From assembly GCA_902575835.1 (NCBI GenBank), contig CACGSX010000001.1, positions 146,065 to 210,064 on the forward strand: a DNA stretch of 64,000 nt, given 5' to 3'. The notes beneath the pieces are model-generated. The model saw only the letters and a list, made by a program, of their open reading frames with translations, was not told the origin of the DNA and ran no database searches. Source of the DNA: an uncultured Pelagibacteraceae bacterium (GTDB taxonomy: Bacteria > Pseudomonadota > Alphaproteobacteria > Pelagibacterales > Pelagibacteraceae). Shown piece by piece: positions 12,535-31,215 of this stretch (positions within the stretch are counted from its first letter, which is position 1; each line of letters opens with the position of its first letter). A program made the translations under genes and the position numbers.

Positions 12535-14745
12535 AGGTTTACCAGTAGATAATGTGTGTTTAATTCTATCTTGGGTTTTACTTGTCTCAATTAATTTCAT
12601 GAAAGCATCTAACTCTAATTTAAACAACTGATCTTCTGTAAGAGTTTTATCTATAGTTGTATCACCACCACTTAAAACATTTGCTAGCTCTGTTCCAACC
12701 ATCATTCCATGATCTAATATAATTTTATCGTTATACAGTTTTTCTAACAAACCAACCATTTTGTCTTTTAAAGATTTACCAGATAAATTAAATGTGCATT
12801 CTTCAGGAGGAGTAAATTCCTTATTTTGATCCAAAATTTTTCTTGCTTCATTTAATAGACTATTTCTGCTCATAATTTTTTTATTTTCAGGGATTAAGTA
12901 CTTTAGAGGTTCAGCTTCGACTGGGGATGTTGCGGTTTTTGCATAACCAATGATATCAAAAACTTTTAAAGGCGCAAAATCTGGATCATTTTTTGCCTCT
13001 TCTGTTTGAGACCATCTCCATAACATTTCTTTACATCCTCCTCCGGCTGGAACTAAACCAACCAATGTTTCAACTAATCCAACAACAATATTTGTATGCG
13101 AAGCAACAAAGTTACTTTGGACTAAAACTTCAAAACCCCCTCCAAGTGTAAGACCTGATGGTGCTGAAACGACTGGAAATTTTGAGTATTTTAAGTGTTT
13201 GCATGTTTCTTGAAAATAACCGACAAACTTTTCTATTGATTTAAAGTCACCTTTATCTGCAAAATTCATAGTATATGTTAAATTAACACCAGCAGAAAAC
13301 TGCATACTTTCATTAATAATTATCAATGGTTTGTCTGTAGCGTTTTTTAAAGAGTCCATTGAGTCGTAATCCAAAGCGTTTGCTTTAGTTGTAAATTCGA
13401 CAATGTTAAATTCAGGAAATCTGTAAATTTCAGCAGAATTATTTTTATCAAGTTTAAGGGCTCTTGGTTTAATTTTTCCTAAAGTTTCAATTTCAGTATA
13501 TTGTTGTCTCTCACCATAAAAATTTTCATCTTTGGATTTTGATAAATTTTCTAAAAATTTATTTCCCTCAAAATTATCGATTTTTTGAAAAAAATTATTT
13601 ACTCCAATTTCTTTTAACATTTCAAAAGGCCCTCTAGACCAATTGAAACCAAGTCTCATTGCTTCATCGATGTCGTTAAACTTATCTGTAATACCTGGAA
13701 CTAATGAAGAAGAATATTTTATTATTTTAGAAATTACTGACCAAGCATAATCTCCATATTTATCTCCACGATTAATTAATTTTTTTAAATCGACTTTTTC
13801 AGATTTAATATCTATTTTTTTTGAGGGAGAATATTCCCCAGTTTCAAGATTGATGGCCTCTAAAATTTTCTTACCACCCTCCTTATTCATTCTATAAAAT
13901 CCACCTTTTCCTTTTCTACCAGTATATCCAGTTTCTATTAATTTTTTTACTAGCGGCATTTCTCTTGCTACAGGTTGAAATGGATCGCTTTCAGGTAATT
14001 CTTTAATAAAACTTTTTAATACATCTGCCATTAAATCAATACCAATTAGGTCATACAATCCAAATACTCCAGTTTTAGGTATACCCATTGGTCTGCCAAA
14101 AACAGCATCAGCCTCTTCTACACTGAGTTTCATATTAAATGCCTCTGTCATTGCAATTTGCATTGCATAAACTCCAATTCTATTGCCTAAAAATCCTGGG
14201 GTGTCATTACAGATAATTGCACCTTTACCTAAGTCTATTTCGCAAAAATCTTTTAAAAGTTTAACTTTATCTAAATCACTTTCATTACTTTTTACTATTT
14301 CTAGTAAATCCATGTATCTAACAGGATTAAAGAAGTGAGTTATGCAGAAATCCTTTTTGTCTTGATCTGATAATTTTTCTGATAGAACACTTATTGGAAT
14401 AGATGAGGTATTAGATGAAACAACAGACTCTTTTTTTCTATGCTTAAATATTTTTTCGTAAATATTATGTTTGATATCTATTCTTTCTACAACAGCTTCT
14501 ACAATCCAATCTGCATTCGAAACCACATCAAAGTTTACCTCAATGTTTCCTACATTTATATTATCTAATTTTGATTTATCTATTAACAAAGGAGGTCTAG
14601 ATTTTCCTATTCTCTCTTTAGCCTTTTGACTAATTTCTGTAGTTAAATCCAACAAAGTAACAGGAACATTTGCGTTACACAAATGTGCAGCTATACCGCT
14701 ACCCATTGTTCCAGAACCGATTACAACTACATTATTTATTTTCAT
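12523..14745 (-). CDS. 3-hydroxyacyl-CoA dehydrogenase / enoyl-CoA hydratase (FadN-type domain order)
   Basis: GSGTMGSGIA, EAVVE, SNTSS, HFFNP, DTPGFLGNR; C-terminal crotonase FSAGVNL, GGGFE, GLVPAGGG. Confidence 0.9.
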   Translation of the reverse strand: MKINNVVVIGSGTMGSGIAAHLCNANVPVTLLDLTTEISQKAKERIGKSRPPLLIDKSKLDNINVGNIEVNFDVVSNADWIVEAVVERIDIKHNIYEKIFKHRKKESVVSSNTSSIPISVLSEKLSDQDKKDFCITHFFNPVRYMDLLEIVKSNESDLDKVKLLKDFCEIDLGKGAIICNDTPGFLGNRIGVYAMQIAMTEAFNMKLSVEEADAVFGRPMGIPKTGVFGLYDLIGIDLMADVLKSFIKELPESDPFQPVAREMPLVKKLIETGYTGRKGKGGFYRMNKEGGKKILEAINLETGEYSPSKKIDIKSEKVDLKKLINRGDKYGDYAWSVISKIIKYSSSLVPGITDKFNDIDEAMRLGFNWSRGPFEMLKEIGVNNFFQKIDNFEGNKFLENLSKSKDENFYGERQQYTEIETLGKIKPRALKLDKNNSAEIYRFPEFNIVEFTTKANALDYDSMDSLKNATDKPLIIINESMQFSAGVNLTYTMNFADKGDFKSIEKFVGYFQETCKHLKYSKFPVVSAPSGLTLGGGFEVLVQSNFVASHTNIVVGLVETLVGLVPAGGGCKEMLWRWSQTEEAKNDPDFAPLKVFDIIGYAKTATSPVEAEPLKYLIPENKKIMSRNSLLNEARKILDQNKEFTPPEECTFNLSGKSLKDKMVGLLEKLYNDKIILDHGMMVGTELANVLSGGDTTIDKTLTEDQLFKLELDAFMKLIETSKTQDRIKHTLSTGKPLVN

Positions 14746-14802: not shown

Positions 14803-16830
14803 CTACTGCTGTAAACTTGCTAATTCTTCAATATTAATATGACATCTAATAGCATTACCATTTTCACCTATTTGCCATGGTGGAACCTCTGAATTACAAA
14901 TATCACCTATTTTCCTAGGGCATCTTCCTTGAAAAGAACAGCCTTTCTCAGGGGGTTTTTCTTCTACTATATCCTCGGCTACTAATTTTGGTTTTATATC
15001 TGGATCTGGTTCCAAAACAGCACCTAATAATACTTCAGTATAAGGATGTGATGGAAATTTGTAAACATTTTGAGAAGGACCAATTTCACATAACCTTCCT
15101 TGATATAAAACTGCAACTCTATCACTAATTGCTCTAACAACAGCCAAATCATGAGAAACAAAAACGTAGGTTGTTCCTAGATCTTCTTTTAATTGTTGCA
15201 ATAAGTTTAAAACAGCTGCTTGAACAGAAACATCTAAAGCTGATGTAACCTCATCACACAAAATTATATCTGGCTTAGCAGCAAATGCTCTTGCAACTGC
15301 AACTCTTTGTTTCTCACCACCTGATAATTGTCTAGGATATCTTGACATATAAAATTCTCCTAACCTTACTTTTTTTAGTAAATCGATTATATTTTTTTTT
15401 AATTCTTCTCCTGATAAATTAAAATACAACTTTAGAGGTTGAGAAAGTATTTGCTCAACTGTGTGGTTTGGATTTAATGACTCGTCTGGGTTTTGAAATA
15501 TAAGTTGTATTGCCCGCAGATCATTTGGATTTCTCATTTTTAAATCAGAAGATAAAATACGATCATTTTCAAATTTAATTTGACCATCTTTTGTTTTGAG
15601 TAAGCCAGCAATTGATTTTAAGATGGTAGACTTACCACTTCCTGATTCACCAACCAGGGCAATAGTTTCTCCTTTTTTTATATCTATATTTATATCTTTA
15701 ACTGTTGGGTTCTGATCAGAAATTTTATTTAATAATTGATCGAAAAATTTCTGCTTTGCATAACTAATTGAAACATCCTTTAATTTTAAAACTTCATTTG
15801 CTTCACTATTATTTGTTTTTTTTGTTATTGAAGTTTGTAGATTATTATTTTGGTTTATTAATTCTTTATAATTAAAACATCTGACATTGGTATCTAATTC
15901 TTTAATATGTTCCAGATCTGGTGAATTTTTTTTACAATTATCATTTGCTAAATTACATCTATCATAAAAACTACAACCTTCATTTATGCTTCCAGGCTGA
16001 GGTTGGCTTCCAGGCATAGAAGCTGGAAGTCCAGCTAGTGAAAGTTTAGGTATCGATTTTAACAATCCATAAGTATAAGGATGAATAGGTTCCTTTAATA
16101 TTTTTCTTGCTGGTCCTTCTAAAACAATTTCTCCAGCATACATTACAACTATTCTATCGCTGACTTGTGCTATGGCTCCTAGGTCATGACTAACATAGAT
16201 CATAGATGTTCCAGTATCTTTTGCTATAAATCTTAATAGTTCTAATACATGAGCTTGTGTTGTAACGTCTAATCCAGTAGTTGGCTCATCTAATAAAAGT
16301 AAATCTGGTTTACCAGCCAATGCCATTGCAACAGCCACTCTTTGTTGCTGCCCTCCAGAAAGCTCGTGAGGATAACGAAAAGCCATAGTTTCTGGTGAAG
16401 GAAGTCTAACTTTATTTAGTAACTCAGAAATTTTTTTATCTCTCTCTGTTTTTTTTAGATCTGTATGTAATCTTAATGCTTCATCAATTTGGTATCCAAT
16501 TTTTAAATTTGGTGTTAGTGCTTGTCCTGCATTTTGTGGTATCATGGCTATTTTTCTACCTCTAATTTTTTCAAGCTGTCTACTGCTCATCTTCAATAAA
16601 TCCTCAGATTTAAAGAGGCATTCACCCTTAAGATGAAATAAGCCTTGTTTTATATAGCCCATCATAGCAAGTGCTAATGTGCTTTTTCCAGAACCCGACT
16701 CCCCTACAATCCCTACAGTCTCTCCTTTTTTTATATTGGTTGAAACATTTCTGAGTATTGAAATTTGTTTGCCCTTCTGACTGTTAAATCCAATTGATAA
16801 ATTTTTAACGCTTTCAATTATTTCATTCAT
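14803..16830 (-). CDS. Dpp/Opp-type ABC ATPase, fused DppD+DppF
   Basis: Two GESGSGKS Walker A, two LSGG signatures, HPYT and C-x-F-x-x-R-C tails. Confidence 0.93.
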   Translation of the reverse strand: MNEIIESVKNLSIGFNSQKGKQISILRNVSTNIKKGETVGIVGESGSGKSTLALAMMGYIKQGLFHLKGECLFKSEDLLKMSSRQLEKIRGRKIAMIPQNAGQALTPNLKIGYQIDEALRLHTDLKKTERDKKISELLNKVRLPSPETMAFRYPHELSGGQQQRVAVAMALAGKPDLLLLDEPTTGLDVTTQAHVLELLRFIAKDTGTSMIYVSHDLGAIAQVSDRIVVMYAGEIVLEGPARKILKEPIHPYTYGLLKSIPKLSLAGLPASMPGSQPQPGSINEGCSFYDRCNLANDNCKKNSPDLEHIKELDTNVRCFNYKELINQNNNLQTSITKKTNNSEANEVLKLKDVSISYAKQKFFDQLLNKISDQNPTVKDINIDIKKGETIALVGESGSGKSTILKSIAGLLKTKDGQIKFENDRILSSDLKMRNPNDLRAIQLIFQNPDESLNPNHTVEQILSQPLKLYFNLSGEELKKNIIDLLKKVRLGEFYMSRYPRQLSGGEKQRVAVARAFAAKPDIILCDEVTSALDVSVQAAVLNLLQQLKEDLGTTYVFVSHDLAVVRAISDRVAVLYQGRLCEIGPSQNVYKFPSHPYTEVLLGAVLEPDPDIKPKLVAEDIVEEKPPEKGCSFQGRCPRKIGDICNSEVPPWQIGENGNAIRCHINIEELASLQQ

Positions 16831-17724
16831 TTAAACAGGTGCCTTTGTTGAACGATCAATTCCTAAAGCTTTTGCAAATGCATCAGCAGTTAAATTTATT
16901 CCAATTATTAACGAACTTAATCCTACTATCGGAGCAATTACAGACCAATATGCAAACGACATCAATCCTCTGGCATTGGAGATCATTAAGCCCCAATCGG
17001 GTGTTGGAGGGCTTACACCAAAACCTAAGAATGACAACGAGCTAAATCCTAACAACATCCAAGACCATCTCATTGCTCCTTCTACTAATATAGCATCTCT
17101 AACATTTGGAATAATTTCATTCCATATAATAGACATGTTGCTATGACCTCTAGCTCTAGCTGAAACTATAAAGTCTTTAGCAATAACATCGTGAGTAGCA
17201 GCTCTAGCAACTCTTACTATTCCTTTACCATAAAAAAAACCAAGTGCGGGAATTAAAACTTCTGTTGATGTTCCTAAAAGAGAAACAATTAATAGCATTG
17301 CAAGTATCCAAGGAATAGAGAGAAACGCATCAACAACTCTCATTACAACATCGTCAATTTTACCTCCAACTAAACCACAAAAAATTCCAAGTAAACCTCC
17401 CCACAGAAGAGCTATCAGTGATCCGAAGAAAGTTACAGTAAGAGCTGTTCTCCCTCCAAGTATTGTCCTTGTAAAAACATCTCTACCCAAGCTATCTGTT
17501 CCAAACCAATGCTCGGCTGAAGGTGCAAGTAACATGGTATTTGGGCTAATTGCTTTATAATCGTATGGTGCAATGTAAGGGCTAGTTAATGCTAAGACTA
17601 CATGAAATAAAACAATTGTAAGTCCAATTAATCCAGAAGGCTTGGAGGCCATAGTTTTTAAAATTTCAAAAGCCTTTTCTAGCTTATTTTTTTGTTTATC
17701 TTCTGTAATTAAATTATTCTCCAT
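16831..17724 (-). CDS. Dpp/Opp ABC permease (DppC-like)
   Basis: HWFGTDSLGRD, EAA-like loop (SARARG), LSFLGFGV..PTPDWG. Confidence 0.92.
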   Translation of the reverse strand: MENNLITEDKQKNKLEKAFEILKTMASKPSGLIGLTIVLFHVVLALTSPYIAPYDYKAISPNTMLLAPSAEHWFGTDSLGRDVFTRTILGGRTALTVTFFGSLIALLWGGLLGIFCGLVGGKIDDVVMRVVDAFLSIPWILAMLLIVSLLGTSTEVLIPALGFFYGKGIVRVARAATHDVIAKDFIVSARARGHSNMSIIWNEIIPNVRDAILVEGAMRWSWMLLGFSSLSFLGFGVSPPTPDWGLMISNARGLMSFAYWSVIAPIVGLSSLIIGINLTADAFAKALGIDRSTKAPV

Positions 17725-17725
17725 T

Positions 17726-18682
17726 TTATTTTCTTATCTGTAAACTTTTTAATCTTGGATTAAGCATAAGTGTCATTAAATCTGCTATTAAATTTATTCC
17801 CACATATATTGATGCCAATATTATTGCTAATGCTTGAACAACAGGTAAATCTCTATTTGATATAGACTCAATTACCAGTCTGCCTAAACCTGGATAATTA
17901 AAAACAACTTCTGTAACAACAACACCACCTAGCAACCAAGCAATTGTTAACGCCACTACATTTATTGCTGGTAATAATGCATTTGGCAGTACATGTCTAA
18001 ATACCATTTTCCAATATGGGACACCTTTTAAAATTGCCATTTGCACATAATCACTAGCCATTACTTGAATTACACTTGAACGTACCATTCTTGCCATGTG
18101 TGCGGTCATAATCATTGAAATTGCAACAACAGGCAAAATTATATTTGAGAGTAATTCATAAAAAGTTGCATCCGATGGTATAATCACAATGCCTGGTAGC
18201 CAACCAAGCCAAATTGCAACAATTAAAATAAGTAAAGTAGCACTGATAAACTCGGGAATAGTCATTGAAAAAATTGTGATAGCTGAGATCATAATATCTG
18301 GAAGCTTATCTCTCCAAAGAGCAGTTATTATTCCTAATACGATTGCTAAAGGAATTCCTATAAGTATTGAAACAGAGGCTAAAACTAATGAGTTTTTAAC
18401 TCTTGGACCCAGTACTTCATTAATTGGCATTTCTCCACTTAAAGAGTAACCAAAATCACCTCTTACAACATTTGATGCCCAGTCCAAATATCTTTCATCA
18501 GCAGGAATATCTAGACCAAGTCTTTTTATGCAAGCATCAAGAGCTGCTCCATAAGCTTCTCTTTCTAAATATGTTGTGCATGCATCCCCAGGTAAAACTT
18601 CAACACCTACAAATGTAATCAATGAAACTATAAATAAAGTGATAAGCCCTAGTCCAATTCTTTTTAAAATTAATAAAAGCAT
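17726..18682 (-). CDS. Dpp/Opp ABC permease (DppB-like)
   Basis: LPGD, GDFGYS, DYVQMAILKG, HVLPNA, EVVFNYPGLG. Confidence 0.92.
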   Translation of the reverse strand: MLLLILKRIGLGLITLFIVSLITFVGVEVLPGDACTTYLEREAYGAALDACIKRLGLDIPADERYLDWASNVVRGDFGYSLSGEMPINEVLGPRVKNSLVLASVSILIGIPLAIVLGIITALWRDKLPDIMISAITIFSMTIPEFISATLLILIVAIWLGWLPGIVIIPSDATFYELLSNIILPVVAISMIMTAHMARMVRSSVIQVMASDYVQMAILKGVPYWKMVFRHVLPNALLPAINVVALTIAWLLGGVVVTEVVFNYPGLGRLVIESISNRDLPVVQALAIILASIYVGINLIADLMTLMLNPRLKSLQIRK

Positions 18683-18729
18683 AAGATTAACTAGAACTTT
18701 GTAACAAAAATAATTTAAATAGAAATAGA

Positions 18730-18757
18730 ATAAAGGCCGCTTATATGCGGCCTTTAT
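18730..18757 (-). terminator. Stem-loop between the SBP and permease genes (terminator or mRNA stabiliser)
   Basis: ataaaggccgc-ttatat-gcggcctttat, 11-bp perfect inverted repeat 10 nt after the SBP stop. Confidence 0.75.
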
Positions 18758-18767
18758 CTAAATACTT

Positions 18768-20255
18768 TTAGTCAACTTTAACTTTATGCCACTGTATAGA
18801 AAAGTGATCTACAGCATCAAGGTTTTTAACTTTTGATGAAGTAACTACAAGTCTAGATACGTGGTATGGAATCATTGTTCCACTTTGTTCCCATAAAGTC
18901 ATTTGAGCATTTTGATATGCTTTCTTTCTTTTATTGAAATCCAACTCACTTCTAGCATCAGCTAAGTTTTTATCAAAGTCAGCATTTTTGAAGTAAGACT
19001 CATTCCATTTAGCTCCACTATGATAAGCTTCATGCAAGATTGTGTCTGCTGGTCTTTGGTTCCAACGTGTCATTGAAACTGGTTTTTTCATCCATACTTC
19101 ATTCCAATAACCTTTAGATGGTACCATTTCTATATTAACTTTAATTCCAGCTTTTGCAACTTGCTGCTGAACGACTTCTGCAATCGTAGGCCAAGTTGGT
19201 TCTAAAGTTGCTGGATAAACAGTCAATTCAATTCCATTTGGAAATCCCGCTTCTCTTAGTAAATTTTTTGCTTTACTAATATTTTGAGGACAATCCATTT
19301 GTAAACGATATTGATCAGAAGGCATTACAGGTGTATCACAAGATACAGTTGCTGCTCCACCCATAACTAGATCTACAAGTTCTTGTCTATCAACTGCTAA
19401 CCTAAAAGCTTTTCTCACTTTAGGATTATCAAATGGAGCAGTATCAGTTCTCATAACCACACCTCTCCAGTTTCCAGTTGGAATTACAGACGTTGTAAAT
19501 TTAGAATTACTGTCAAATATCTTTTTTTGATTGAAAGGAACATATCTATTCATATCAATTTGACCCGTTAAAAGAGCTTGAATTCTTGCTTGAGCATCTG
19601 GTATCGCAATGACATGAACTTCCGCAACTCCTGGTGCACCTTCCCAGTAATCTGGGTTAGCTTTTAGAATTGTAGTTCCTTCTGGATCAAATTTATCAAC
19701 CATGAATGGTCCAGTACCAACTCCAGTTTGTCCAATAGTATCTCCTGATCCTTCAGGTATCATTCTTAATCTGTAGTCTGTTAATAATAACGGAAAGTCA
19801 GCAAATGAAGTTGATAACTTCATTTTAACAGTATGCTGATCAACTACCTCAATATCTTCAACTACATTTAAACTTTTTCTTACCGGAGATCCAATATCAG
19901 GATCTTTAGCTCTCATTAGAGAATATTTTACATCTGGGGCATCAAATGCTGATCCATCATGGAAATATATTCCTTTTCTTAAATTAAATGTCCATTCAGT
20001 TGCATCAGAATTAGCACTCCAATCTGTTGATAATGAAGGTGATGGAACACCATTCATATCAGGTCTTACTAATCTATTTTGTGTTTTGATGACAACTTGA
20101 AACAAACGCCCCTTTGTTATGGCATCTAAGTTAGTATCTTTTCCAAATCCAAGATCATGTGATACTTTAAATACTCCACTTGATGCATTGGCAATAGAAA
20201 AAGATAATATCAGAGACATAAAAGTCGCTGAAAAAACTTTAAGTATGTATTTCAT
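18768..20255 (-). CDS. Family 5 (DppA/OppA/NikA) substrate-binding protein
   Basis: Signal peptide, WTFNLRKGIYFHDG, GTGPF, PFDNPKVRKA; SD-like AGAGGGA upstream. Confidence 0.92.
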   Translation of the reverse strand: MKYILKVFSATFMSLILSFSIANASSGVFKVSHDLGFGKDTNLDAITKGRLFQVVIKTQNRLVRPDMNGVPSPSLSTDWSANSDATEWTFNLRKGIYFHDGSAFDAPDVKYSLMRAKDPDIGSPVRKSLNVVEDIEVVDQHTVKMKLSTSFADFPLLLTDYRLRMIPEGSGDTIGQTGVGTGPFMVDKFDPEGTTILKANPDYWEGAPGVAEVHVIAIPDAQARIQALLTGQIDMNRYVPFNQKKIFDSNSKFTTSVIPTGNWRGVVMRTDTAPFDNPKVRKAFRLAVDRQELVDLVMGGAATVSCDTPVMPSDQYRLQMDCPQNISKAKNLLREAGFPNGIELTVYPATLEPTWPTIAEVVQQQVAKAGIKVNIEMVPSKGYWNEVWMKKPVSMTRWNQRPADTILHEAYHSGAKWNESYFKNADFDKNLADARSELDFNKRKKAYQNAQMTLWEQSGTMIPYHVSRLVVTSSKVKNLDAVDHFSIQWHKVKVD

Positions 20256-20395
20256 AAGTTCCCTCTTTTTCTTTAGTTGTTTAAATAATTAAAAAGATAA
20301 CAATTCCAGAACTAGATAACAACATGCAAAATGTAGTGATTCATCTACTAATTGAATAGATATTTTAATTAATATACACTTTTTCTAAATTATAA

Positions 20396-21619
20396 ATGCA
20401 AAACGAATTAAACAAAGTCAGATTTTCAGTAAAACCTTTAAAATCCAATGATAATAAAGTTGTTGAACTTGCTAGAACTGTAGGAATACATCCTTTGGCA
20501 TATCAAGAACTTCCTTACGATCCCGAGTATTCTTTTTATGCTGGAAGATTAAATCCAGAAGTACTTTCACACGCTACTGCTGATGAAATGTATTGGAAAG
20601 TAAGACAGGAAGTAATTTTTCGTCATACTGGTGAACATCCATATGAAATTTCTGGTCCAGATGCAGAAAAACTTTTACAAAAAATATTCACAAGAGATAT
20701 ATCAAAAGTAAAAGTAGGAAGATGCTCATACCAATTTGCTTGTTACAATGATGGAGGCATGCTTACAGATGGAGTTTTGCTAAAACTTGAAGAAAATAAA
20801 TTTTGGTTTGTTCAAGCTGATGGTGATCTTTTTTCATGGTATAAAGCTCACACTGATAATCTTAATGTAAAAATTTCTGACCCAGACGTTTGGGTAAGTC
20901 AAATTCAGGGACCAAAATCTATGGATCTTTTAAAAGTTTTAAGTAAAGAAACTTTTCCTGTTAATTGGAAATATTTTGATTGGAAAGAAATTACTATACT
21001 TAATGAAAAAGTGATCATAAGTAGATCGGGATTTAGTAATGAACTAGGTTGGGAAATTTATTTTAGAAAAAATAATAATACTGAAAAAGTCGGGGATTAT
21101 ATTCTTGAAGAAGGAAAAAAAATGGGAATGATACTCACAGGCACTCCTGGTTTCAGATGTAAAAGAATAGAATCTGGATTATTATCAGCTGGGCAAGACT
21201 TTAACCATGAAACAAATCCATATGATGTCGGGTTAGGTAAGTATGTCGATTTAAAAAAAAATTATTTTATTGGAAAATCAGCATTGATGACTGCCGATAA
21301 AGAAAAAAGATGTTGGGGAATACGAGTTGAAAATGGAACAGGTTTAAAAGGAACTTACATAAAATTTAATAATGAAGTAATTGGAAAAATTACATCAAGT
21401 ACCTGGTCTCCTTTTCAAAAATGTGGTGTTGGAATAGTTTTAATGAATTCTACAAAACATAAACCAGGATTAATAGTGGATGTTAGTTGCAATGATAATA
21501 AAATTCATAAAGGTGAGATATGCGCCTTACCAATGTATGACTTTAAAAATGAAATTGTAAGAGGTTTAAAAATCGATATTCCAACAGGTCCTTCTCCGTG
21601 GTCAGGAATAAAAAAATAA
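20396..21619 (+). CDS. GcvT/aminomethyltransferase-family THF-dependent demethylase (not canonical GcvT or DmdA)
   Basis: EISGPDAEKLLQ, GGMLTDG, QIQGPKS, SRSGFSNELGWEIY, RIESG, DFNHETNPYDVGL. Confidence 0.82.
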   Translation: MQNELNKVRFSVKPLKSNDNKVVELARTVGIHPLAYQELPYDPEYSFYAGRLNPEVLSHATADEMYWKVRQEVIFRHTGEHPYEISGPDAEKLLQKIFTRDISKVKVGRCSYQFACYNDGGMLTDGVLLKLEENKFWFVQADGDLFSWYKAHTDNLNVKISDPDVWVSQIQGPKSMDLLKVLSKETFPVNWKYFDWKEITILNEKVIISRSGFSNELGWEIYFRKNNNTEKVGDYILEEGKKMGMILTGTPGFRCKRIESGLLSAGQDFNHETNPYDVGLGKYVDLKKNYFIGKSALMTADKEKRCWGIRVENGTGLKGTYIKFNNEVIGKITSSTWSPFQKCGVGIVLMNSTKHKPGLIVDVSCNDNKIHKGEICALPMYDFKNEIVRGLKIDIPTGPSPWSGIKK

Positions 21620-22293
21620 TAATAGCAATTGGTGGTGGTGGATTTACACATTCTTCTGACGAAGACTTGGATGAATATGTTATAAATCAAGTTAATAAAT
21701 CAAAAATCAATATAGGTTTTTTACCTACAGCTAGCAATGATAATCAAGAAAAAACCGATCTTTTTTATAAAAGATTTAAATCACAAAAATTTAAATTATC
21801 TCATTTTAATCTCTGTTCAAGTGTCGAAGGTTTTAATGAATGGTTGTTAAACAAGGATATAATTTATGTGGGAGGTGGTAATACCTCTGACATGATTAAT
21901 ATTTGGAAAAGACATGATCTTATCAAAGTCTTTAAAGATGCATATGAAAAAGGAGTAATTCTGAGTGGAATAAGCGCAGGAGCTGTTTGTTGGTTTGATT
22001 GGATATTATCAGATTCAGTCAATAAAGAGTTGAGTCCATTAAAAGGAATAAATTTTTTAGACGGAAGTTGCACACCGCATTCTTCAGATAATAATCGACT
22101 TCGACAATTTATTTCAGAAATTAAAGATGGAAATTTGCCAGATGGAATAGCTATTGATGATGGTGTAGCTGTGCTTTTTATTGACGGAGTTCCTTCTGAG
22201 GTTTATTCTTCAAGAATTAATCATGACGCTTATTATGTGACTAGACATGATAAGATAAGTTTAAAAACATATATAGAAAATTTAAATGGATAA
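21598..22293 (+). CDS. pepE: Peptidase E / S51 family serine hydrolase
   Basis: IAIGGGGF, FLPTAS, YVGGGNT, nucleophile GISAGA, CTPH; GTG start overlapping the upstream gene. Confidence 0.8.
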   Translation: MVRNKKIIIAIGGGGFTHSSDEDLDEYVINQVNKSKINIGFLPTASNDNQEKTDLFYKRFKSQKFKLSHFNLCSSVEGFNEWLLNKDIIYVGGGNTSDMINIWKRHDLIKVFKDAYEKGVILSGISAGAVCWFDWILSDSVNKELSPLKGINFLDGSCTPHSSDNNRLRQFISEIKDGNLPDGIAIDDGVAVLFIDGVPSEVYSSRINHDAYYVTRHDKISLKTYIENLNG

Positions 22294-23446
22294 CATTAAA
22301 GCCAGTAACAAAATTTTTAGCATTGAAGATGCAAAAAAACTATCAAAGAAAAGATTACCAAAACTAGTTTATGATTTTATTGACGGTGCATCTGGAGATG
22401 AAAAATTATCAGAAATTAATAGTTTTGCTTTAGATCAAATACGACTTGAGCCAAGAGTATTAAGAAATGTAGAGGAAAGAAAGCTAAAAAAAAATATTCT
22501 TGGATTTAACTATGACTATCCATTTGGTTTTGCTCCAATGGGTATGACAAATCTTTCATGGCCAGGCGCAGACTCAATGCTGGCAAAAGAAAGTTCAAGA
22601 AATAATATACCAACTTGTGTATCGATGGCTTCCACAACTACCCTAGAAAAAATGTATGAGCTTTCAGAGGGTCATTCATGGCTTCAACTTTATATTTTTC
22701 AGGATGAAGCTTTTGTCATGGAATTGCTCGATAGAGCAGAAAAAACTGGTTATGAGGTTGCTATACTTACTGTTGATGTTCCGGTTTTATCTAGGAGAAC
22801 TAGAGATGATAAAAATGGATTTTCATATCCATTTAAAATTGGACCTAAACAATTTTTTGATTTTGCAACTCATCCAGTTTGGTCAATATCTACATTACTT
22901 AATGGAATACCAAAGCCAATGAACTACGAAACTTCAAAAAGTGGAAAAGGTATTTTTAAAAGAAAAGAAAGTAGAGGAAAAACAGATTGGGAAACTTTAA
23001 AAAGAGTAAGAAATAAATGGAAAGGCAAATTAATTGTAAAAGGTGTCATGTCATCTGATGATGCAGTTAAAATTAAAGAAATGGGCGCTGATGCTATTCA
23101 AGTTTCAAATCATGGAGGTAGACAATTAGATAGTGCCTCAGCAGCAATAAATATTCTACCTTTTATTAGAGAGGCAGTAGGAAATAATTTTCCAATTATT
23201 TTTGATAGTGGAATAAGAAGTGGAAGCGATATTGTAAGATCATTAGCTTTAGGAGCAGATTTTTCAATGATTGGAAGACCTGTAATGTACGCGATGGGTG
23301 CTGACGGAGCCAGCGGGCTAAGAAGAATTGTAGACATAATTAAAGAAGAAACTAGCACAACACTAGGTTTGGTTGGATTAAATGATATTAATGAAGTTTC
23401 TTCTGATATAATTGAACAGAAACTTTTTATGAATACAACTTACTGA
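22286..23446 (+). CDS. FMN-dependent alpha-hydroxy-acid oxidase/dehydrogenase (LldD/MdlB/glycolate oxidase family)
   Basis: YDFIDGA, APMG, WLQLY, LTVDVP, VKGV, VSNHGGRQLD, DSGIRSGSD, GRP. Confidence 0.92.
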   Translation: MDNIKASNKIFSIEDAKKLSKKRLPKLVYDFIDGASGDEKLSEINSFALDQIRLEPRVLRNVEERKLKKNILGFNYDYPFGFAPMGMTNLSWPGADSMLAKESSRNNIPTCVSMASTTTLEKMYELSEGHSWLQLYIFQDEAFVMELLDRAEKTGYEVAILTVDVPVLSRRTRDDKNGFSYPFKIGPKQFFDFATHPVWSISTLLNGIPKPMNYETSKSGKGIFKRKESRGKTDWETLKRVRNKWKGKLIVKGVMSSDDAVKIKEMGADAIQVSNHGGRQLDSASAAINILPFIREAVGNNFPIIFDSGIRSGSDIVRSLALGADFSMIGRPVMYAMGADGASGLRRIVDIIKEETSTTLGLVGLNDINEVSSDIIEQKLFMNTTY

Positions 23447-23447
23447 T

Positions 23448-25187
23448 ATGGAAAAAAAAATAAGAGGTGGAGCGTTAATTGCAAGAGCATTAAAAGATAA
23501 AGGTATTAATAAAGTTTTTACTCTATCTGGTGGGTTTTGTAATCCTGCAATTGAAGGTTTCATGGAATGTCAAATTGATGTAGTTAACTGTCCTCATGAA
23601 CAAATAGCTGGACACTTAGCAGATGGACACACAAGAATTACAAGAAAACCATCTGTATGTTTAGTTGGGCCAGAAGGTTTTGCAAATGCAGTACCATCCA
23701 TGATGGAAGCATGGGGAGAAAGAACACCGATAATTTATATAACTGGATCAAGTAGTTTAAAAAGACAAGGTTCTGGTGGCTTTAAAGAAATTGATGATGT
23801 TTCAATAGCTGCTCCTCTTACAAAATATAGTGCAAGCATTACAGATGGAACAAGAATAAGAGAATTTGTTGATAAAGCGTACAGAATTGCAACTAATGGA
23901 TATCCTGGAGCTGTTCATCTAAGTTTACCAGTAGATATAATGTTTTCTTCATTTGAAGAAAATGTTGGACTGGACGAAAGACCATTTTCACATAAAGCAA
24001 AGCCAGTTGCTAAGGCATGGCCAGATCCAAATGCTCTATCAAAAATACTTGAGCTAGCATGTAATGCAAAAAAACCTGTCATAATTGGAGGACATGGTGT
24101 TTGGTGGTCAAACTCAGAAAAAAATTTAGAGACTGCGGGTGAAAGTTTAAATATTCCAGTTTTTAATGTGCCATATCATCAAAAACTTTTGGGAGAAGAG
24201 GTAAACGCATATATGGGTTTAGCAGATATTCACCAATATCCACCCTCAGAATTTGCATTACATAACTCAGACTTAGTTTTAATGATTGGTGCAAGGTTAG
24301 ATAACCAAATGAATTTTGGTAACCCTCCTTTCATTCCAAAAACAACAACTTTAGTTTGCGTTAACGGTTCCCATGAAGAAATTGAATTTAATAGAGTTGC
24401 TGATCATAACCTTTTATGTGATCCAGGAGTATTTTTAGATACTCTATGTAATTTAAAGAAAAATAATAAATGGAATTTAGGAAATAGTTGGTTTCAAGAT
24501 AATAAAAATAGAAAAAAAGATTGGGTGGATAAATCTTTAAATGAATTAAAAATTGAAGCGGATAAAGCCAAAAAAAATGGTGGAAAAATTCATCCGCTGC
24601 AATTAGCGTTAGATGTTCAAGACGCAATGGATGAGAAAGATTGGCTTGTAATTGATGGAGGAAATACTCATTTCTGGTCGGAGATCGCAATAAATTTAGC
24701 TGGTGCTCAAGGAAAAAAATTAGGTGGAATTTTGCATCCTGGCACATTTAGTATGCTGGGTGTTGGTGTATCATTTGCATTATCTGCAAAAAATAATAAC
24801 CCTAAATCGAATGTAATTTTAATTAGTGGAGATGGTGCCTTTTTATCTGGAGGCATGTCTATAGAAACTGCATTTTTTGAAAAGAAACCAATCGTTGTTG
24901 TTATTGACAATAATGGTGGCTTAGCATCAATTGGTCAACAACAAGAAAGACTATTTGAAAGCGGAAAAAGAGTTGCAACAGACTTTAGAGATATACCGTT
25001 CCACAGTATATTTGAAGGTTTTGGGGGTCATGGAGAATTGGTAACGAAAAGAGAAGAATTGGGTCCAGCATTAAAAAGAGCTATTGCAAGCGGTAAAACT
25101 GCTTGTGTAAATGTAAAAGCTAAACCAGTATTAAGTCCAATTGTTGCTGCTGTGGCCAGCAAGAGAGAGAAATCTTCAATAGAGTAA
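23448..25187 (+). CDS. ThDP-dependent enzyme of the 2-hydroxyacyl-CoA lyase / benzaldehyde lyase / ALS-like group
   Basis: Catalytic HE (PHEQ), PGAVHLSLPVD, PGTFSMLGVG, ThDP motif GDGAF...DNNGG. Confidence 0.88.
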   Translation: MEKKIRGGALIARALKDKGINKVFTLSGGFCNPAIEGFMECQIDVVNCPHEQIAGHLADGHTRITRKPSVCLVGPEGFANAVPSMMEAWGERTPIIYITGSSSLKRQGSGGFKEIDDVSIAAPLTKYSASITDGTRIREFVDKAYRIATNGYPGAVHLSLPVDIMFSSFEENVGLDERPFSHKAKPVAKAWPDPNALSKILELACNAKKPVIIGGHGVWWSNSEKNLETAGESLNIPVFNVPYHQKLLGEEVNAYMGLADIHQYPPSEFALHNSDLVLMIGARLDNQMNFGNPPFIPKTTTLVCVNGSHEEIEFNRVADHNLLCDPGVFLDTLCNLKKNNKWNLGNSWFQDNKNRKKDWVDKSLNELKIEADKAKKNGGKIHPLQLALDVQDAMDEKDWLVIDGGNTHFWSEIAINLAGAQGKKLGGILHPGTFSMLGVGVSFALSAKNNNPKSNVILISGDGAFLSGGMSIETAFFEKKPIVVVIDNNGGLASIGQQQERLFESGKRVATDFRDIPFHSIFEGFGGHGELVTKREELGPALKRAIASGKTACVNVKAKPVLSPIVAAVASKREKSSIE

Positions 25188-25188
25188 A

Positions 25189-25524
25189 ATGGCAAAATTT
25201 AGCTCACATTTATTGAATGGTTCTGATGGAGCTCATGCGAGTAACGTCAAAGTAAAGATTTATCAAATACAGTCCTCAAAATTAAAAAAGCTTTTTTTGA
25301 ATACAAAGACTGATGGAAATGGTAGGATTAATCAGCATTTCAATCTTAGCAAAAAAGATTGTAAATGCGATTATGAAATGATTTGTTATATTAAAAGATA
25401 CTTTAAAAAGAAAAAAATTGTGGGTGAAATAGTCGTAAAATTTAAAATGACTGATAATAAAAAAAATTATCACTTGCCAATAATAATTTCTCCTAACAGC
25501 TATACAGTTTGGTGGTCAAAATAA
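25189..25524 (+). CDS. Transthyretin-like / 5-hydroxyisourate hydrolase-like protein with atypical C-terminus
   Basis: SSHLLN, TDGNGR, YHLPIIISP; ends YTVWWSK instead of YSTYRGS. Confidence 0.78.
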   Translation: MAKFSSHLLNGSDGAHASNVKVKIYQIQSSKLKKLFLNTKTDGNGRINQHFNLSKKDCKCDYEMICYIKRYFKKKKIVGEIVVKFKMTDNKKNYHLPIIISPNSYTVWWSK

Positions 25525-25527
25525 TAT

Positions 25528-26691
25528 ATGGCTTCGTTGATACAAAGCAAAATTAGCACAAAACTAAATATGTCTAGGAGAATAAGAAGAACTCCTTACA
25601 CCAAGAGAGTTGAAGAATGTGGTGTAACTGATTTTACTGTTGTAAATCATATGCTCTTACCAAAAAGATTTCAGAAATCAGTTGAGGATGATTATTGGCA
25701 TTTAAATGAGCATGTTCAACTATGGGATGTTTCTTGTCAAAGACAAGTTCAGATATCAGGTCCAGACGCTAGTTTATTAGTACAAAAAATGACGCCAAGA
25801 TCATTAAAAAATATGGAGACTGGAAAATGTTTTTATATACCTATGATAGATGAAAATGCTGGAATGATAAATGATCCAGTGTTGTTAAAGTTAGATGATG
25901 ATATGTTTTGGATTTCAATAGCAGATTCTGATGTATTGCTTTGGGCAAAAGGTATTGCAGTTGGTTTAAATTTGAATGTAAAAATAACAGAACCAGATGT
26001 ATATCCTCTCGCAATACAAGGTCCAAAGTCTGAAGATTTGATGGCATCAATATTCGGAGAAGATATTAGAAAATTAAAATTTTTTAATTTTAGAATATTT
26101 GATTTTTTAGGAACTAAACAAGTTATTGCGAGATCGGGGTATAGCAAACAAGATGGATTTGAGATTTATTTTAAATGCTTTGAAGATTACTTCGACAAAA
26201 ATGAAATGGGAGAAAAAATTTGGGATATAATATGGAAAGCGGGGAAAGAATTTAACATTGCTCCAGGATGCCCAAATTTAATTGACAGAATAGAAGCAGG
26301 ATTAATGTCTTACGGAAATGATTTCACGAAAGTAAATAATCCAATTGAATGTAACTTAGAAAAATATTGTAGTGACAAAAGCGATCACGATTTCATTGGA
26401 AAAAATGCTTTAGATAATATCAAGAAACAAGGTGTAAAACAAAAATTAAAAGGGGTATTATTTGATGGTGTAGATTGTCCTCCATGTTCAATTCCTTTTC
26501 CACTTTATTCAAAAGATAAGAAATTAATTGGTAAAATTACTTCAGGGATTTATTCTCCAAAATTCAAAAAAAATATTGGTTTATCTATGATTTTAAATGA
26601 ATTTTGTAAAATAGGATCAGAAGTTTTAGTTCACACTCCAGATAATAAATTAAGAAAAGGAATTGTGTCCTCTTTACCATTTTCAAAATAA
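25528..26691 (+). CDS. dmdA: DmdA-like THF-dependent demethylase (variant)
   Basis: SRRIRRTPYT, NHMLLP, HVQLWDV, NDPVLLKL, WISIADSD, RSGYSKQ, GCPNLIDRIE, SYGNDF are DmdA-family signatures. Confidence 0.82.
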   Translation: MASLIQSKISTKLNMSRRIRRTPYTKRVEECGVTDFTVVNHMLLPKRFQKSVEDDYWHLNEHVQLWDVSCQRQVQISGPDASLLVQKMTPRSLKNMETGKCFYIPMIDENAGMINDPVLLKLDDDMFWISIADSDVLLWAKGIAVGLNLNVKITEPDVYPLAIQGPKSEDLMASIFGEDIRKLKFFNFRIFDFLGTKQVIARSGYSKQDGFEIYFKCFEDYFDKNEMGEKIWDIIWKAGKEFNIAPGCPNLIDRIEAGLMSYGNDFTKVNNPIECNLEKYCSDKSDHDFIGKNALDNIKKQGVKQKLKGVLFDGVDCPPCSIPFPLYSKDKKLIGKITSGIYSPKFKKNIGLSMILNEFCKIGSEVLVHTPDNKLRKGIVSSLPFSK

Positions 26692-26714
26692 TAATTAGTG
26701 TGTATAACACTTAC

Positions 26715-27839
26715 ATGAAAAGAGCAGTAATAGCAGGATATTCAAGATCACCTTTTACTATGGCAAGAAAAGGTGAATTGATTGATGTTAAGCCTGTAAA
26801 TATGTTTGCAGAAGTTGTTAAAAATCTTGTATCTAAAACTAAAGTAAATCCTGCTGATATAGAAGATATTGTTGTTGGGTGTGCATTTCAAGTTGGAGAG
26901 CAGAGTTTTAATATTGGGAAACTCACAACATTTTTATCTGGAATGGAAATACATACATCTGGAATGACAGTTGATAGATGGTGTGGCTCATCTATGGAGG
27001 CTATTCATGTTGCAGCAGGTAAAATAGCAATGGGCGCAGGAAAAGTTTTCGTATGTGGAGGTGTTGAAAGTATGACTAGAGTTACAACTGGCTTTGAACC
27101 AATACCTTATCCTTACACAGATAAAGAAAATCCAAATGTCTATTTTTCAATGGGAATAACTGCAGAAAATGTTGCCAAGAGATATAAAATTTCGAGAACT
27201 GAACAACAAGAGTTTGCAATTCAAAGTCATCAAAAAGCTAATGATGCTGAATTTAATGGTAAATTTAAAAATGAAATTGTTGAAATTGCTGGCTGCACAA
27301 AAGATGGAAACATACGTCCAAAAAGTAATCAAGAAACTTTAGATGGTTTAAAACTTGCATTTGATCAAGAAGGAACTGTTACTGCAGCAACATCATCACC
27401 TCTTACAGATGGAGCAGCAGCAACATTGATATGTGAAGAAAGCTATGCAAAAGAAAATGGATTAGAAATTTTGGGTAGAATTGTTGCAACTGGGGTTAAA
27501 GGATGTGAGCCTGATGTAATGGGACTTGGACCTATAGGGGCAACTAAAAAAGCATTAGAGAGAGCAAATTTATCAATTAATGATATCGATATTGTAGAAA
27601 TTAATGAAGCTTTTGCTTCTCAATCAATAGCATGTTTGAAAGATCTTGGTATCGATCAAAAGAAGGCTAATTTAGATGGTGGAGCACTAGCTCTTGGACA
27701 TCCATTAGGAGCAACAGGAGCTAGAATTACTGGTAAAGCTGCAGATTTGCTAAGACGTGAAAATAAGAAATACGCTTTATCTACTCAATGTATTGGTTTA
27801 GGTATGGGTATTGCAACAGTAATTGAATCGGTAAATTAA
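26715..27839 (+). CDS. Thiolase (acetyl-CoA C-acyltransferase)
   Basis: VDRWCGSS, GGVESM, NEAFA, GHPLGATG, CIGLGMG; start set to MKRAVI at 26715. Confidence 0.92.
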   Translation: MKRAVIAGYSRSPFTMARKGELIDVKPVNMFAEVVKNLVSKTKVNPADIEDIVVGCAFQVGEQSFNIGKLTTFLSGMEIHTSGMTVDRWCGSSMEAIHVAAGKIAMGAGKVFVCGGVESMTRVTTGFEPIPYPYTDKENPNVYFSMGITAENVAKRYKISRTEQQEFAIQSHQKANDAEFNGKFKNEIVEIAGCTKDGNIRPKSNQETLDGLKLAFDQEGTVTAATSSPLTDGAAATLICEESYAKENGLEILGRIVATGVKGCEPDVMGLGPIGATKKALERANLSINDIDIVEINEAFASQSIACLKDLGIDQKKANLDGGALALGHPLGATGARITGKAADLLRRENKKYALSTQCIGLGMGIATVIESVN

Positions 27840-28694
27840 TTATCTATTTATTCCTCTTAAACGTTCAGATCTTCTTCTTAATAATTCAGCACTAATCAAT
27901 ATTAAGGTTGATAAAACGATTAAACATGTAGCGACTGCTAAAATTGTCGGGCTTAATTGTTCTCTTAAACCTGTCCACATTTGAATTGGAATTGTTGTGT
28001 TTTCAAGACCAGCTAAAAATAAAACGACTACAACTTCATCAAAAGAAGTTACAAAAGCAAATAAACCTCCTGATATTACTCCAGGTAAAATTAATGGAAG
28101 TGTTACTTTCATAAATGTATTTACTGGATTACTGCCTAAACTGGCTGCTGCTCTCGTCACACTATGATCAAAACCTGATAATGTTGCAGTAACTGTTATT
28201 ACAACGAAAGGTGTTCCTAAAATTATATGAGCTAAAACTATTCCTGTATGAGTTGCTGCTAAACCTGCCTTTGCCATAAAAAAGAATATTGCAACACCTG
28301 ATATAATAAGTGGAACTATCATTGGTGAAATCAAAGTTGCCATTATTATTCCTTTAAAAGGCATGTGTCTGCTGCTCAATCCTAATGCAGCAACCGTTCC
28401 TAAAATTACTGATCCTAAAGTTGCAAATATAGCAATAATAAAACTATTCTTTGCAGCAAGCCCCCACGGGTTTTTTGTGCCATAAACCATATCTTTGTAC
28501 CATCTTAAGGAAAAAGCATCTGGGTCTAAATTCTTCATTCCTTCTGAAAAAACAAGAAACTCTTCTGCATTAAATGATAATGGAAATATTACAAACAAAG
28601 GTGCTATTAAAAAAATAAAAACAAATGTACATATAGCAATGTAAAAGTAGTGCCAAATTCTATATCTAGTTTCTGTATACTTTGGTAATGCCAT
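27840..28694 (-). CDS. potC: Pot-type ABC permease II
   Basis: PLSFN, SLRWY, RAAASLG, SFDEVVV, TIPIQMW. Confidence 0.85.
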   Translation of the reverse strand: MALPKYTETRYRIWHYFYIAICTFVFIFLIAPLFVIFPLSFNAEEFLVFSEGMKNLDPDAFSLRWYKDMVYGTKNPWGLAAKNSFIIAIFATLGSVILGTVAALGLSSRHMPFKGIIMATLISPMIVPLIISGVAIFFFMAKAGLAATHTGIVLAHIILGTPFVVITVTATLSGFDHSVTRAAASLGSNPVNTFMKVTLPLILPGVISGGLFAFVTSFDEVVVVLFLAGLENTTIPIQMWTGLREQLSPTILAVATCLIVLSTLILISAELLRRRSERLRGINR

Positions 28695-28695
28695 A

Positions 28696-29958: not shown

Positions 29959-29962
29959 AAAT

Positions 29963-29990
29963 AAAAAGGGCGACTTAAAAAAGTCGCCCT
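29963..29990 (-). terminator. Intrinsic terminator-like hairpin after the Pot-type SBP
   Basis: agggcgactt-aaaa-aagtcgccct 10-bp stem followed by a short U run on the minus strand. Confidence 0.75.
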
Positions 29991-30025
29991 ATATATATTA
30001 TATTATTCTAGTCTTTTATACTCTT

Positions 30026-31141: not shown

Positions 31142-31144
31142 TTA

Positions 31145-31215
31145 TCCTCCGTTTAAACGTTTAATATAAATAATTTATATAAGCGAAGTACAACAAAAAC
31201 GATATTCAGAGTCAA
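31145..31215 (-). promoter_or_regulatory. Probable internal promoter and RBS of the SBP gene
   Basis: TTGACT (-35-like) at 31215-31210 and GGAGGA at 31150-31145 in a 114-nt spacer; the -10 is not clear. Confidence 0.4.

Follow-up and report, generated by a model that had tools for sequence, protein, structure and literature searches.

A Pelagibacter gene island with dmdA subclade C/2 and a candidate role in methyl-sulfonium degradation

Introduction

SAR11 cells depend on external reduced sulfur, and demethylation is regarded as the main fate of oceanic dimethylsulfoniopropionate (DMSP). The pathway, described in "Candidatus Pelagibacter ubique" HTCC1062 and Ruegeria pomeroyi, proceeds via DmdA, DmdB, DmdC as well as DmdD/AcuH; to our knowledge, only clade A and clade D DmdA enzymes have been characterised. 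Subclades C/2 and D/1 are reported to prevail among marine dmdA genes (PMC13360808), and C/2 has been taken to represent the DMSP-demethylation potential of a SAR11 genotype separate from the carriers of clade D (PMC7370799). Here, we describe an 11-gene accessory catabolic island of Pelagibacter that carries a C/2 gene. It occupies positions 14803-27839 of a stretch of 64,000 nucleotides (the window; contig CACGSX010000001.1, positions 146,065 to 210,064, of the uncultured Pelagibacteraceae assembly GCA_902575835.1). The window has a GC content of ~31%, and the source genome, which is of the Pelagibacter type, comprises 1.15 Mb and is 82% complete. Judged from its genes, the island may import and degrade a zwitterionic DMSP-related methyl-sulfonium compound other than DMSP, a reading to which we assign a probability of about one half.

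The island shares with DMSP demethylation a DmdA-family, tetrahydrofolate (THF)-dependent methyltransferase that passes the DmdA model. It lies beside a FadB gene, is located inside the dmdA-dmdB-dmdC cluster in one genus, and is extended in other lineages by an acyl-CoA dehydrogenase (ACAD), a CoA ligase and a crotonase. However, the island demethylase, which will be referred to as DmdA2, is an ancient paralog lacking Tyr32 and Arg322 of the canonical SAR11 enzyme. Furthermore, its gene is preceded by those of a thiamine diphosphate (ThDP) enzyme and a transthyretin-like protein, both absent from the known pathway, and canonical dmdCBA is present elsewhere in the genome.

Other described systems resemble single parts of the island. 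As in the mandelate pathway of Pseudomonas putida (MdlB, MdlC), a flavin mononucleotide (FMN)-dependent 2-hydroxyacid dehydrogenase is encoded directly upstream of the ThDP enzyme, suggesting conversion of a 2-hydroxy acid via the 2-oxo acid to a decarboxylated product. Unlike that pathway, the island has neither a racemase nor an aldehyde dehydrogenase (ALDH), its context is onium-methyl rather than aromatic metabolism, and the ThDP enzyme is not an ortholog of benzoylformate decarboxylase, as 2-hydroxyacyl-CoA lyase (HACL), oxalyl-CoA decarboxylase (OXC) and benzaldehyde lyase (BAL) are equally close. With this latter group it shares the three-domain architecture, the catalytic Glu and the ThDP motif, but it scores far below all family models and constitutes a narrow family of its own. 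Carnitine breakdown involves carnitine dehydrogenase, the beta-keto acid cleavage enzyme (BKACE) and betainyl-CoA thioesterase. In two lineages, the conserved core of the island is followed by BKACE and a fusion of 3-hydroxyacyl-CoA dehydrogenase (HCDH) and thioesterase, and the SAR11 thiolase and FadB could perform an analogous beta-keto cleavage of a 3-hydroxy onium acid; yet the BKACE genes lie outside the island of the window, the cleavage would be a CoA-dependent thiolysis, and the demethylase is of the sulfonium type. Finally, the transthyretin-like protein shares the fold and the catalytic His, Arg and His of 5-hydroxyisourate (HIU) hydrolase (HiuH/PucM), but carries S-x-W-W-S instead of YRGS, scores under the cutoff and has no purine-catabolic context.

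A literature search found no description of this gene set, in agreement with the initial annotation of the stretch, or of a catabolic route for 4-dimethylsulfonio-2-hydroxybutyrate (DMSHB). New in the present work are the boundaries of the island, its constant FadB neighbour, its insertion into a dmd cluster, the direct test of the C/2 primers, a clade-wide residue signature, the pattern of one thiolase per genome, a variant with a tripartite ATP-independent periplasmic (TRAP) transporter, and the table of partner genes.

Results and Discussion

Extent and Conservation of the Island

Profile searches confirmed all ten open reading frames (ORFs) first annotated between 14803 and 26691, with their families. 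The importer genes diverge from a plus-strand operon, in which the junctions from the GcvT-like gene to dmdA2 measure -22 to +3 nt, exactly as first annotated. The initial picture of a four-gene importer diverging from a six-gene operon was correct in arrangement, but it left out the last operon gene. This gene, encoding a degradative, FadA-like thiolase (26700-27839 (+); Thiolase_N/C; TIGR01930, 407 bits), starts 8 nt past the end of dmdA2 and is missing at this site in island-less genomes. In three complete Pelagibacter genomes without the island, the gene for the PotC permease directly adjoins FadB. Because island-less genomes join FadB to PotC, the unit was defined as an 11-gene insertion at 14803-27839 that includes the thiolase and excludes FadB. 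The latter, a FadB-like fusion of 3-hydroxyacyl-CoA dehydrogenase and enoyl-CoA hydratase (12523-14745 (-); 3HCDH_N, 3HCDH and ECH domains), is the neighbour of the island in every locus covering that flank. It was nevertheless rejected as an island member in Pelagibacter, since it is a core gene that also occurs without the island.

Conservation was analysed using the best 80 species-representative loci. The full 11-gene order is kept in all 80, at identities down to 54-66% for the S51 hydrolase, the transthyretin-like protein and the GcvT-fold protein GcvT2, which are the fastest-evolving island genes. The ThDP gene was detected in 58 species out of the 300 sampled for Pelagibacter and in 15 of 56 high-quality genomes, and the island is thus present in about 20% of the sampled Pelagibacter species. 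An order-wide sample contained the ThDP gene in 40 of 200 genomes of Pelagibacter and in none of 100 genomes of ten other genera; in a separate sample, the whole island was found in two genomes of other genera. In metagenomes the ThDP homologs are very abundant (3,479 clusters at 90% identity with E <= 1e-100). The homolog search was dominated by near-identical SAR11 variants and yielded neither diversity nor informative names. As the order is kept in 80 loci and two other genera, and the core recurs on unrelated metagenomic contigs, the gene arrangement is far beyond chance. The proposal that the gene set is a real unit co-occurring in other genomes, which the initial annotation had put up for a synteny search, is thereby confirmed.

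DmdA2 Is a Second, Diverged DmdA and Corresponds to Subclade C/2

The product of dmdA2 (25528-26691 (+)) scored 530.2 bits against the DmdA model NCBIfam NF009133, and 529.7 bits in the genome-wide search, exceeding the curated equivalog cutoff of 410 bits. A profile search of the contigs of the source genome revealed two genes above this cutoff. The higher-scoring one (572 bits) sits on a different contig, where leuB and asd enclose dmdC-dmdB-dmdA in the canonical arrangement, demonstrating that the gene in the window is a second paralog; dmdB, dmdC and dmdD are indeed not part of the island operon, as had been noted. Canonical dmdA was also present in all six DmdA2-bearing genomes of one sample. 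In a maximum-likelihood tree the DmdA2 clade (support 98/96) is sister to all canonical SAR11 DmdAs (100/99). The split predates the divergence of the SAR11 genera, and DmdA2 represents an ancient sister clade.

The identity between DmdA2 and the canonical clade is 47-49%, with 13 fixed differences. Residues invariant in canonical SAR11 DmdAs across genera, including Tyr29, Tyr32, Cys82, Tyr94, Tyr217 and Arg322, are not retained in DmdA2; Arg322, found exclusively in the canonical enzymes, is replaced by Thr or Ala. The signature Val32, Gln63, Pro82, Trp217 and Thr322 is kept in 44 further DmdA2 copies on contigs of 31-70% GC. Asp108, Glu204 and Tyr206 of the folate site (3TFH numbering) are kept as well, appearing as NDPV and E-I-Y in all DmdA2 copies. 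The exchanges E63Q and W197Y, initially highlighted as notable, also occur in canonical DmdAs from other genera of SAR11 and were therefore rejected as indicators of a changed specificity.

Further DmdA-like genes were observed. Most sampled Pelagibacter genomes possess a paralog of ~400 bits, which we take to be the SAR11_1265 type adjoining metF; it was not found in the source genome at its 82% completeness. The source genome has a 237-bit DmdA-like paralog of 451 aa at C1:97273-98340. On one metagenomic contig (L186) the DmdA2 gene is split into two adjacent ORFs, which might reflect a frameshift, a pseudogene or an assembly error.

DmdA2 is dmdA subclade C/2. The quantitative PCR primers for C/2 (Varaljay et al. 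2010; used as printed in Table S4 of PMC6309047) bind with zero mismatches at 25848-25873 (+) and 26017-26039 (-), yielding an amplicon of 192 bp. With at most one mismatch per primer, the pair also matches about 40 of 89 island loci, which represent the window's own sub-lineage, and it has no match to canonical dmdA genes; the D/1 forward primer shows two mismatches to the canonical gene. What had been annotated as a DmdA variant is hence a distinct paralog, but one that already bears an environmental name. In contrast to the reported genotype split (PMC7370799), C/2 and canonical dmdA are found together in one genome here. A literature search yielded no biochemical data for dmdA clade C.

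A Conserved Core with Exchangeable Partner Genes

A search seeded with a ThDP relative of 65% identity retrieved 80 metagenomic loci; the following counts refer to non-SAR11-type contigs with room for the respective gene. The transthyretin-like (TTR) gene directly follows the ThDP gene in 50 of 53 loci, and dmdA2 lies within two genes after it in 39 of 41. ThDP-TTR-DmdA2 is thus the minimal conserved unit, and it recurs on contigs of 31-70% GC. Among 42 loci, the gene upstream of the ThDP gene encodes an FMN dehydrogenase in 30, an NAD-dependent short-chain dehydrogenase/reductase (SDR) in five and a substrate-binding protein (SBP) in four. In one lineage an SDR takes the place of the FMN enzyme, and many SAR11 variants append an extra class-IV aminotransferase, with the core ilvE also kept in both complete genomes checked. 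The interchangeable dehydrogenases and the added aminotransferase suggest that the ThDP enzyme acts on a 2-oxo acid, and they fit the order of hydroxy acid, oxo acid and ThDP step proposed at the outset.

Further partner genes point in the direction of methyl transfer. In a genome of another alphaproteobacterial family (G868) the order is homocysteine S-methyltransferase, GcvT2, FMN dehydrogenase, ThDP, TTR, DmdA2, OsmC and crotonase. Lineages of 60-70% GC add a weak MetF-like gene after dmdA2, together with PurU on the contigs of 60-62% GC. After dmdA2, two lineages of 37-41% GC have BKACE and the HCDH/thioesterase fusion, and in one of them genes for an ACAD, an ADP-forming acyl-CoA synthetase, a crotonase and a hydrolase come next. 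Methyl-onium chemistry and production of 5-methyl-THF are suggested by the homocysteine S-methyltransferase, by the MetF-like gene with PurU and by the BKACE system of the carnitine type, in line with the methylated onium substrate initially suggested. A beta-keto cleavage seems to be achieved by non-orthologous enzymes, namely thiolase and FadB in SAR11 and BKACE with the dehydrogenase-thioesterase fusion in other lineages. An orthologous Dpp-type importer (51-67% identity), usually with the S51 hydrolase and a LysR-type regulator, accompanies the core in lineages of 46-62% GC.

In the genus g19 (G019) the gene order is asd-dmdA1-dmdB-dmdC-FadB-island-leuB, which places the island inside the canonical dmd cluster. 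As FadB is the constant neighbour of the island and the pair adjoins dmdC in this genus, the output of the island appears to be tied to the methylmercaptopropionate (MMPA)-CoA route. A ~780-nt gap between dmdA1 and dmdB in the same genome (L110 3137-3920) probably contains the alpha/beta hydrolase gene mhpC, which is listed among the dmdA-region genes of HTCC1062 (PMC3160333).

Properties of the FMN Dehydrogenase, the ThDP Enzyme and the Thiolase

All island enzymes retain their catalytic motifs. The FMN-dependent 2-hydroxyacid dehydrogenase (22286-23446 (+); FMN_dh PF01070, 393.7 bits) is LldD/MdlB-like and lacks none of the catalytic residues of its family (Tyr, Asp, Arg, Lys and His/Arg), with conserved motifs QLY, TVDVP, RR, VKGV and SNHGGRQ; at the position of Tyr24 in glycolate oxidase it carries Phe. 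Its closest structures are L-lactate oxidase and (S)-mandelate dehydrogenase, and with 223.5 bits it remains below the LldD cutoff of 550 (NF033901). Since it contains an insertion where LldD/MdlB-type enzymes have their membrane segment, we infer a dehydrogenase rather than an oxidase.

The orphan ThDP enzyme (23448-25187 (+); TPP_enzyme_N/M/C) is encoded by the most conserved gene of the island, with 70% of its residues invariant in 80 orthologs. Its three TPP domains, the catalytic Glu of the HEQ motif and GDG-X26-NN identify it as a member of the ThDP-decarboxylase superfamily. Among 1.8 billion representatives clustered at 50% identity, only three full-length relatives exceed ~33% identity (65%, 47% and 35%). 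The nearest structures are HACL, OXC and BAL, although the scores of 237 bits against NF058623 (2-hydroxyacyl-CoA lyase, cutoff 600) and 193 bits against TIGR03254 (oxalyl-CoA decarboxylase, cutoff 739) place it outside both families. Two distant relatives (P0003 and P0009) stand in unrelated contexts and were not used for inference beyond a side remark.

The island thiolase is the sole thiolase in four island-bearing complete genomes, a small sample of related genomes. Three island-less genomes also contain a sole thiolase, which is 37-40% identical to the island enzyme and adjoins pyruvate dehydrogenase E1/E2 (e.g., G213:C1:1181961-1183127, L111 5959-7131). Given one thiolase per tested genome, the island copy may be the general thiolase of the cell.

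Importer, GcvT2, S51 Hydrolase and Transthyretin-Like Protein

The importer is of the Dpp/Opp type (family 5), comprising an SBP_bac_5 protein, two permeases and an ATPase with oligo_HPY. On the minus strand it consists of a fused double ABC ATPase of the DppD/F type (14803-16830; two ABC_tran and oligo_HPY domains), which was found only where the island is, a DppC/OppC-type permease (16831-17724; BPD_transp_1 and OppC_N), a DppB/OppB-type permease (17726-18682; BPD_transp_1 and its N-terminal domain), and the family-5 SBP (18768-20255; SBP_bac_5, 280 bits). Both permease genes are syntenic in all sufficiently long loci, and ATPase orthologs of 56-60% identity occur beside the core in high-GC lineages. 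The SBP is far below the peptide-binder equivalogs DppA (100/1005 bits), OppA (67/947) and GsiB (176/594), and peptide specificity is thus not indicated by these models; among solved structures, it is most similar to GsiB, HbpA and AgaA, an opine binder.

GcvT2 (20396-21619 (+); GCV_T and GCV_T_C) reached 206 bits on the DmdA model, which is under the cutoff, and forms a long-branch clade of its own in the tree. It retains Asp and E-x-Y of the folate site, accompanies the core again in a second family (G868) and is a probable THF-dependent methyl or aminomethyl transferase. A 2-O-methyl ether, which the initial annotation had considered as a substrate needing both demethylases, is not supported by the scores of GcvT2 on the O-demethylase models LigM and DesA (66 and 62 bits). 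Moreover, we know of no precedent for THF-dependent demethylation of an alkyl methyl ether.

The serine hydrolase at 21598-22293 (+) belongs to the S51 family (Peptidase_S51 PF03575, 122.7 bits) with conserved GxSAG Ser nucleophile and PH motifs, and in high-GC lineages it co-occurs with the orthologous importer. Its first designation as PepE holds at the level of the family; with 28 bits against the PepE equivalog NF003642 (cutoff 156), the protein is only distantly PepE/cyanophycinase-like.

The transthyretin-like protein (25189-25524 (+)) scored 70.1 bits against TIGR02962 (5-hydroxyisourate hydrolase, cutoff 87.45). His7, Arg45 and His95 align with the catalytic residues of HIU hydrolase and are invariant, whereas at the C-terminus (...WWSK) YRGS is replaced by S-x-W-W-S, a motif conserved in 62 family members. 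We thus consider it a distinct subfamily rather than a canonical HIU hydrolase. An Atlas search with this protein returned nothing beyond automatic "hydroxyisourate hydrolase" labels. It is tempting to speculate that the two C-terminal Trp residues could cage an onium group.

A Proposed Pathway and Its Alternatives

The analysis establishes gene content, boundaries, conservation, paralogy, the identity with C/2 and the intact motifs; the class of substrate, the sequence of steps and each of the reactions given below are inferred. The Dpp-type ABC system would import the compound, possibly as an amide- or peptide-like conjugate opened by the S51 hydrolase. DmdA2 (C/2) would then move the S-methyl group to THF, as suggested by its family and by the linked folate-recycling genes elsewhere, and the FMN dehydrogenase would oxidise the 2-hydroxy acid to the 2-oxo acid; where the extra class-IV aminotransferase is present, a 2-amino acid could give the same 2-oxo acid. 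This would be decarboxylated or cleaved by the orphan ThDP enzyme, and the shortened product might enter CoA-linked breakdown via the island thiolase and the neighbouring FadB, joining the canonical DmdB/DmdC route. DMSHB and S-methylmethionine are candidates for the branch through a 2-oxo acid, and 3-hydroxy sulfonium acids of the gonyol type for the branch through beta-keto cleavage. Catabolism of a DMSP-related sulfonium hydroxy or amino acid via a 2-oxo acid seems to be the most economical reading. DsyD, the only known DMSHB decarboxylase, was considered as a relative and rejected, as it consists of a PF04115 ureidoglycolate-lyase-type domain. Altogether, the interpretation given in the initial annotation is partly supported.

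Several observations weigh against this reading. DmdA2 passes the curated DmdA equivalog cutoff and may therefore simply demethylate DMSP. HACL and OXC, the nearest solved relatives of the ThDP enzyme, use CoA esters, and a lyase acting on a 2-hydroxyacyl-CoA fits this as well as a 2-oxo acid decarboxylase does. Neither a CoA ligase nor an aldehyde dehydrogenase is encoded in the island, one lineage has the core without any adjacent dehydrogenase, and three of the 11 genes (S51, transthyretin-like and GcvT2) have no assigned role, while the thiolase may serve the cell in general instead of the pathway. In addition, one SAR11 variant (L194 6176-16035; L192) has the order FadB<, FMN dehydrogenase>, ThDP>, TTR>, thiolase>, DctM<, DctQ<, DctP<, PotC<, with a TRAP transporter and without DmdA2, GcvT2, S51 and the ABC system, so that the oxidative module can work without the paralog.

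Among the alternatives, the most probable, though still unlikely, one is that DmdA2 is a plain DMSP demethylase isozyme supplied by the other genes with DMSP made from its precursors or homologs: the FMN dehydrogenase and the ThDP enzyme would act on DMSHB, amounting to DMSHB-decarboxylase activity, and gonyol-type 3-hydroxy homologs would undergo beta-keto cleavage. The 530 bits of DmdA2 against a cutoff of 410 and its intact folate site are what such an isozyme would show, the island abuts dmdCBA in G019, BKACE and thiolase partners suit the cleavage of 3-hydroxy homologs, and most enzymes with DMSHB-decarboxylase activity are still unidentified (PMC11306096). Nevertheless, every DmdA2-bearing genome checked also has canonical DmdA, which would make a second DMSP demethylase redundant in a streamlined genome. 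The replacements of Tyr32 and Arg322, both invariant in the canonical SAR11 enzymes, are fixed across lineages of 31-70% GC, and the island has no aldehyde dehydrogenase for this scheme either.

The onium group might also be a nitrogen compound, such that the island degrades a hydroxylated betaine (carnitine-like or another trimethylammonium hydroxy acid) with DmdA2 and GcvT2 as N-methyl:THF transferases. This appears improbable to us, even though the BKACE and HCDH-thioesterase pair beside the core in two lineages has the architecture of carnitine breakdown, the G868 variant is flanked by genes for a GMC oxidoreductase and an ALDH, one distant ThDP relative lies beside OpuAC and a GMC oxidoreductase, and some homocysteine S-methyltransferase family members use betaine. 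The closest paralog of DmdA2 is DmdA, a sulfonium-specific enzyme, to which it is much closer than to other aminomethyltransferase clades, and in G019 the dmd cluster harbours the island; furthermore, we know of no GcvT-fold enzyme that demethylates a quaternary amine directly.

It is very improbable that the genes merely share an island, with the importer and S51 handling ordinary Asp-containing peptides and a housekeeping thiolase. The SBP does belong to a peptide/opine family and S51 to a peptidase family, each genome has a single thiolase, and the partners of the core differ among lineages; but the operon is translationally coupled, the importer recurs with S51 beside the same core in lineages of 46-62% GC, and ThDP, TTR and DmdA2 stay together almost without exception (39 of 41 non-SAR11-type loci with room). 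A mandelate-type route for a methoxylated aromatic 2-hydroxy acid, in which the two GcvT-fold proteins would be LigM-like O-demethylases acting ahead of an MdlB-like dehydrogenase and an MdlC-like decarboxylase, is likewise very improbable and the least likely of the alternatives: (S)-mandelate dehydrogenase and BAL rank with the nearest solved structures for the FMN and ThDP enzymes, and LigM and DesA are GcvT-fold enzymes, but scores on the LigM and DesA models reach no more than 49-66 bits, far from the cutoffs of 580-800, DmdA2 falls in the DmdA clade, the island contains no gene for mandelate racemase, benzaldehyde dehydrogenase or ring cleavage, and the partner genes elsewhere indicate onium and CoA chemistry.

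Putative Regulatory Elements and Neighbourhood

A 12-bp GC-rich hairpin with six G-C pairs was detected by a scan for terminator-like structures in the gap between the SBP and the first permease gene (18729-18758 (-)). It probably acts as an intra-operon attenuator or mRNA stabiliser raising the level of the SBP relative to the permeases. In an Rfam search of the island, no riboswitch or known RNA was found, the sole match being a sub-threshold one to sraL that overlaps this hairpin. The divergent promoter region (20256-20395) was examined by aligning 49 distinct orthologous spacers and four added variants. Across island variants, a block ATA.CA..ACA...AAAAT ... T.T..T..TTG is partly conserved, which may represent an operator. 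Promoter-like sites were not more frequent than in shuffled sequence. The island itself has no regulator gene, whereas high-GC relatives carry a LysR or AraC gene at the position of the divergent spacer.

On the other side, the island adjoins the block eutA-doeA-potA-potD-potB-potC (window 27840-34317), which is core and is found at the same place in island-less genomes with 58-92% identity. In an island-less genome (G120; L101 5078-6374), ~1.3 kb of extra DNA is located between the cyclophilin gene and FadB, and the neighbourhood is therefore a variable spot.

Conclusions

Subclade C/2 is a diverged paralog in cells that already have canonical dmdA, and it is always found within a module of enzymes foreign to the known pathway. 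We tentatively raise the possibility, at present a doubtful one, that dmdA C/2 is not a DMSP demethylase and that, together with the orphan ThDP enzyme and a new, onium-binding enzyme of the transthyretin-like kind, it is central to a widespread undescribed pathway for other algal sulfonium compounds (DMSHB, S-methylmethionine, gonyol-type acids). If so, much of the oceanic "DMSP demethylation potential" would be misassigned, and field estimates of this potential would need revision if the substrate of DmdA2 is another sulfonium compound. The island would then provide a missing catabolic route for DMSP precursors and analogs, with new functions of a ThDP enzyme and a transthyretin-like protein that are directly testable, and would represent a new organosulfur sink in SAR11 and other bacterioplankton.

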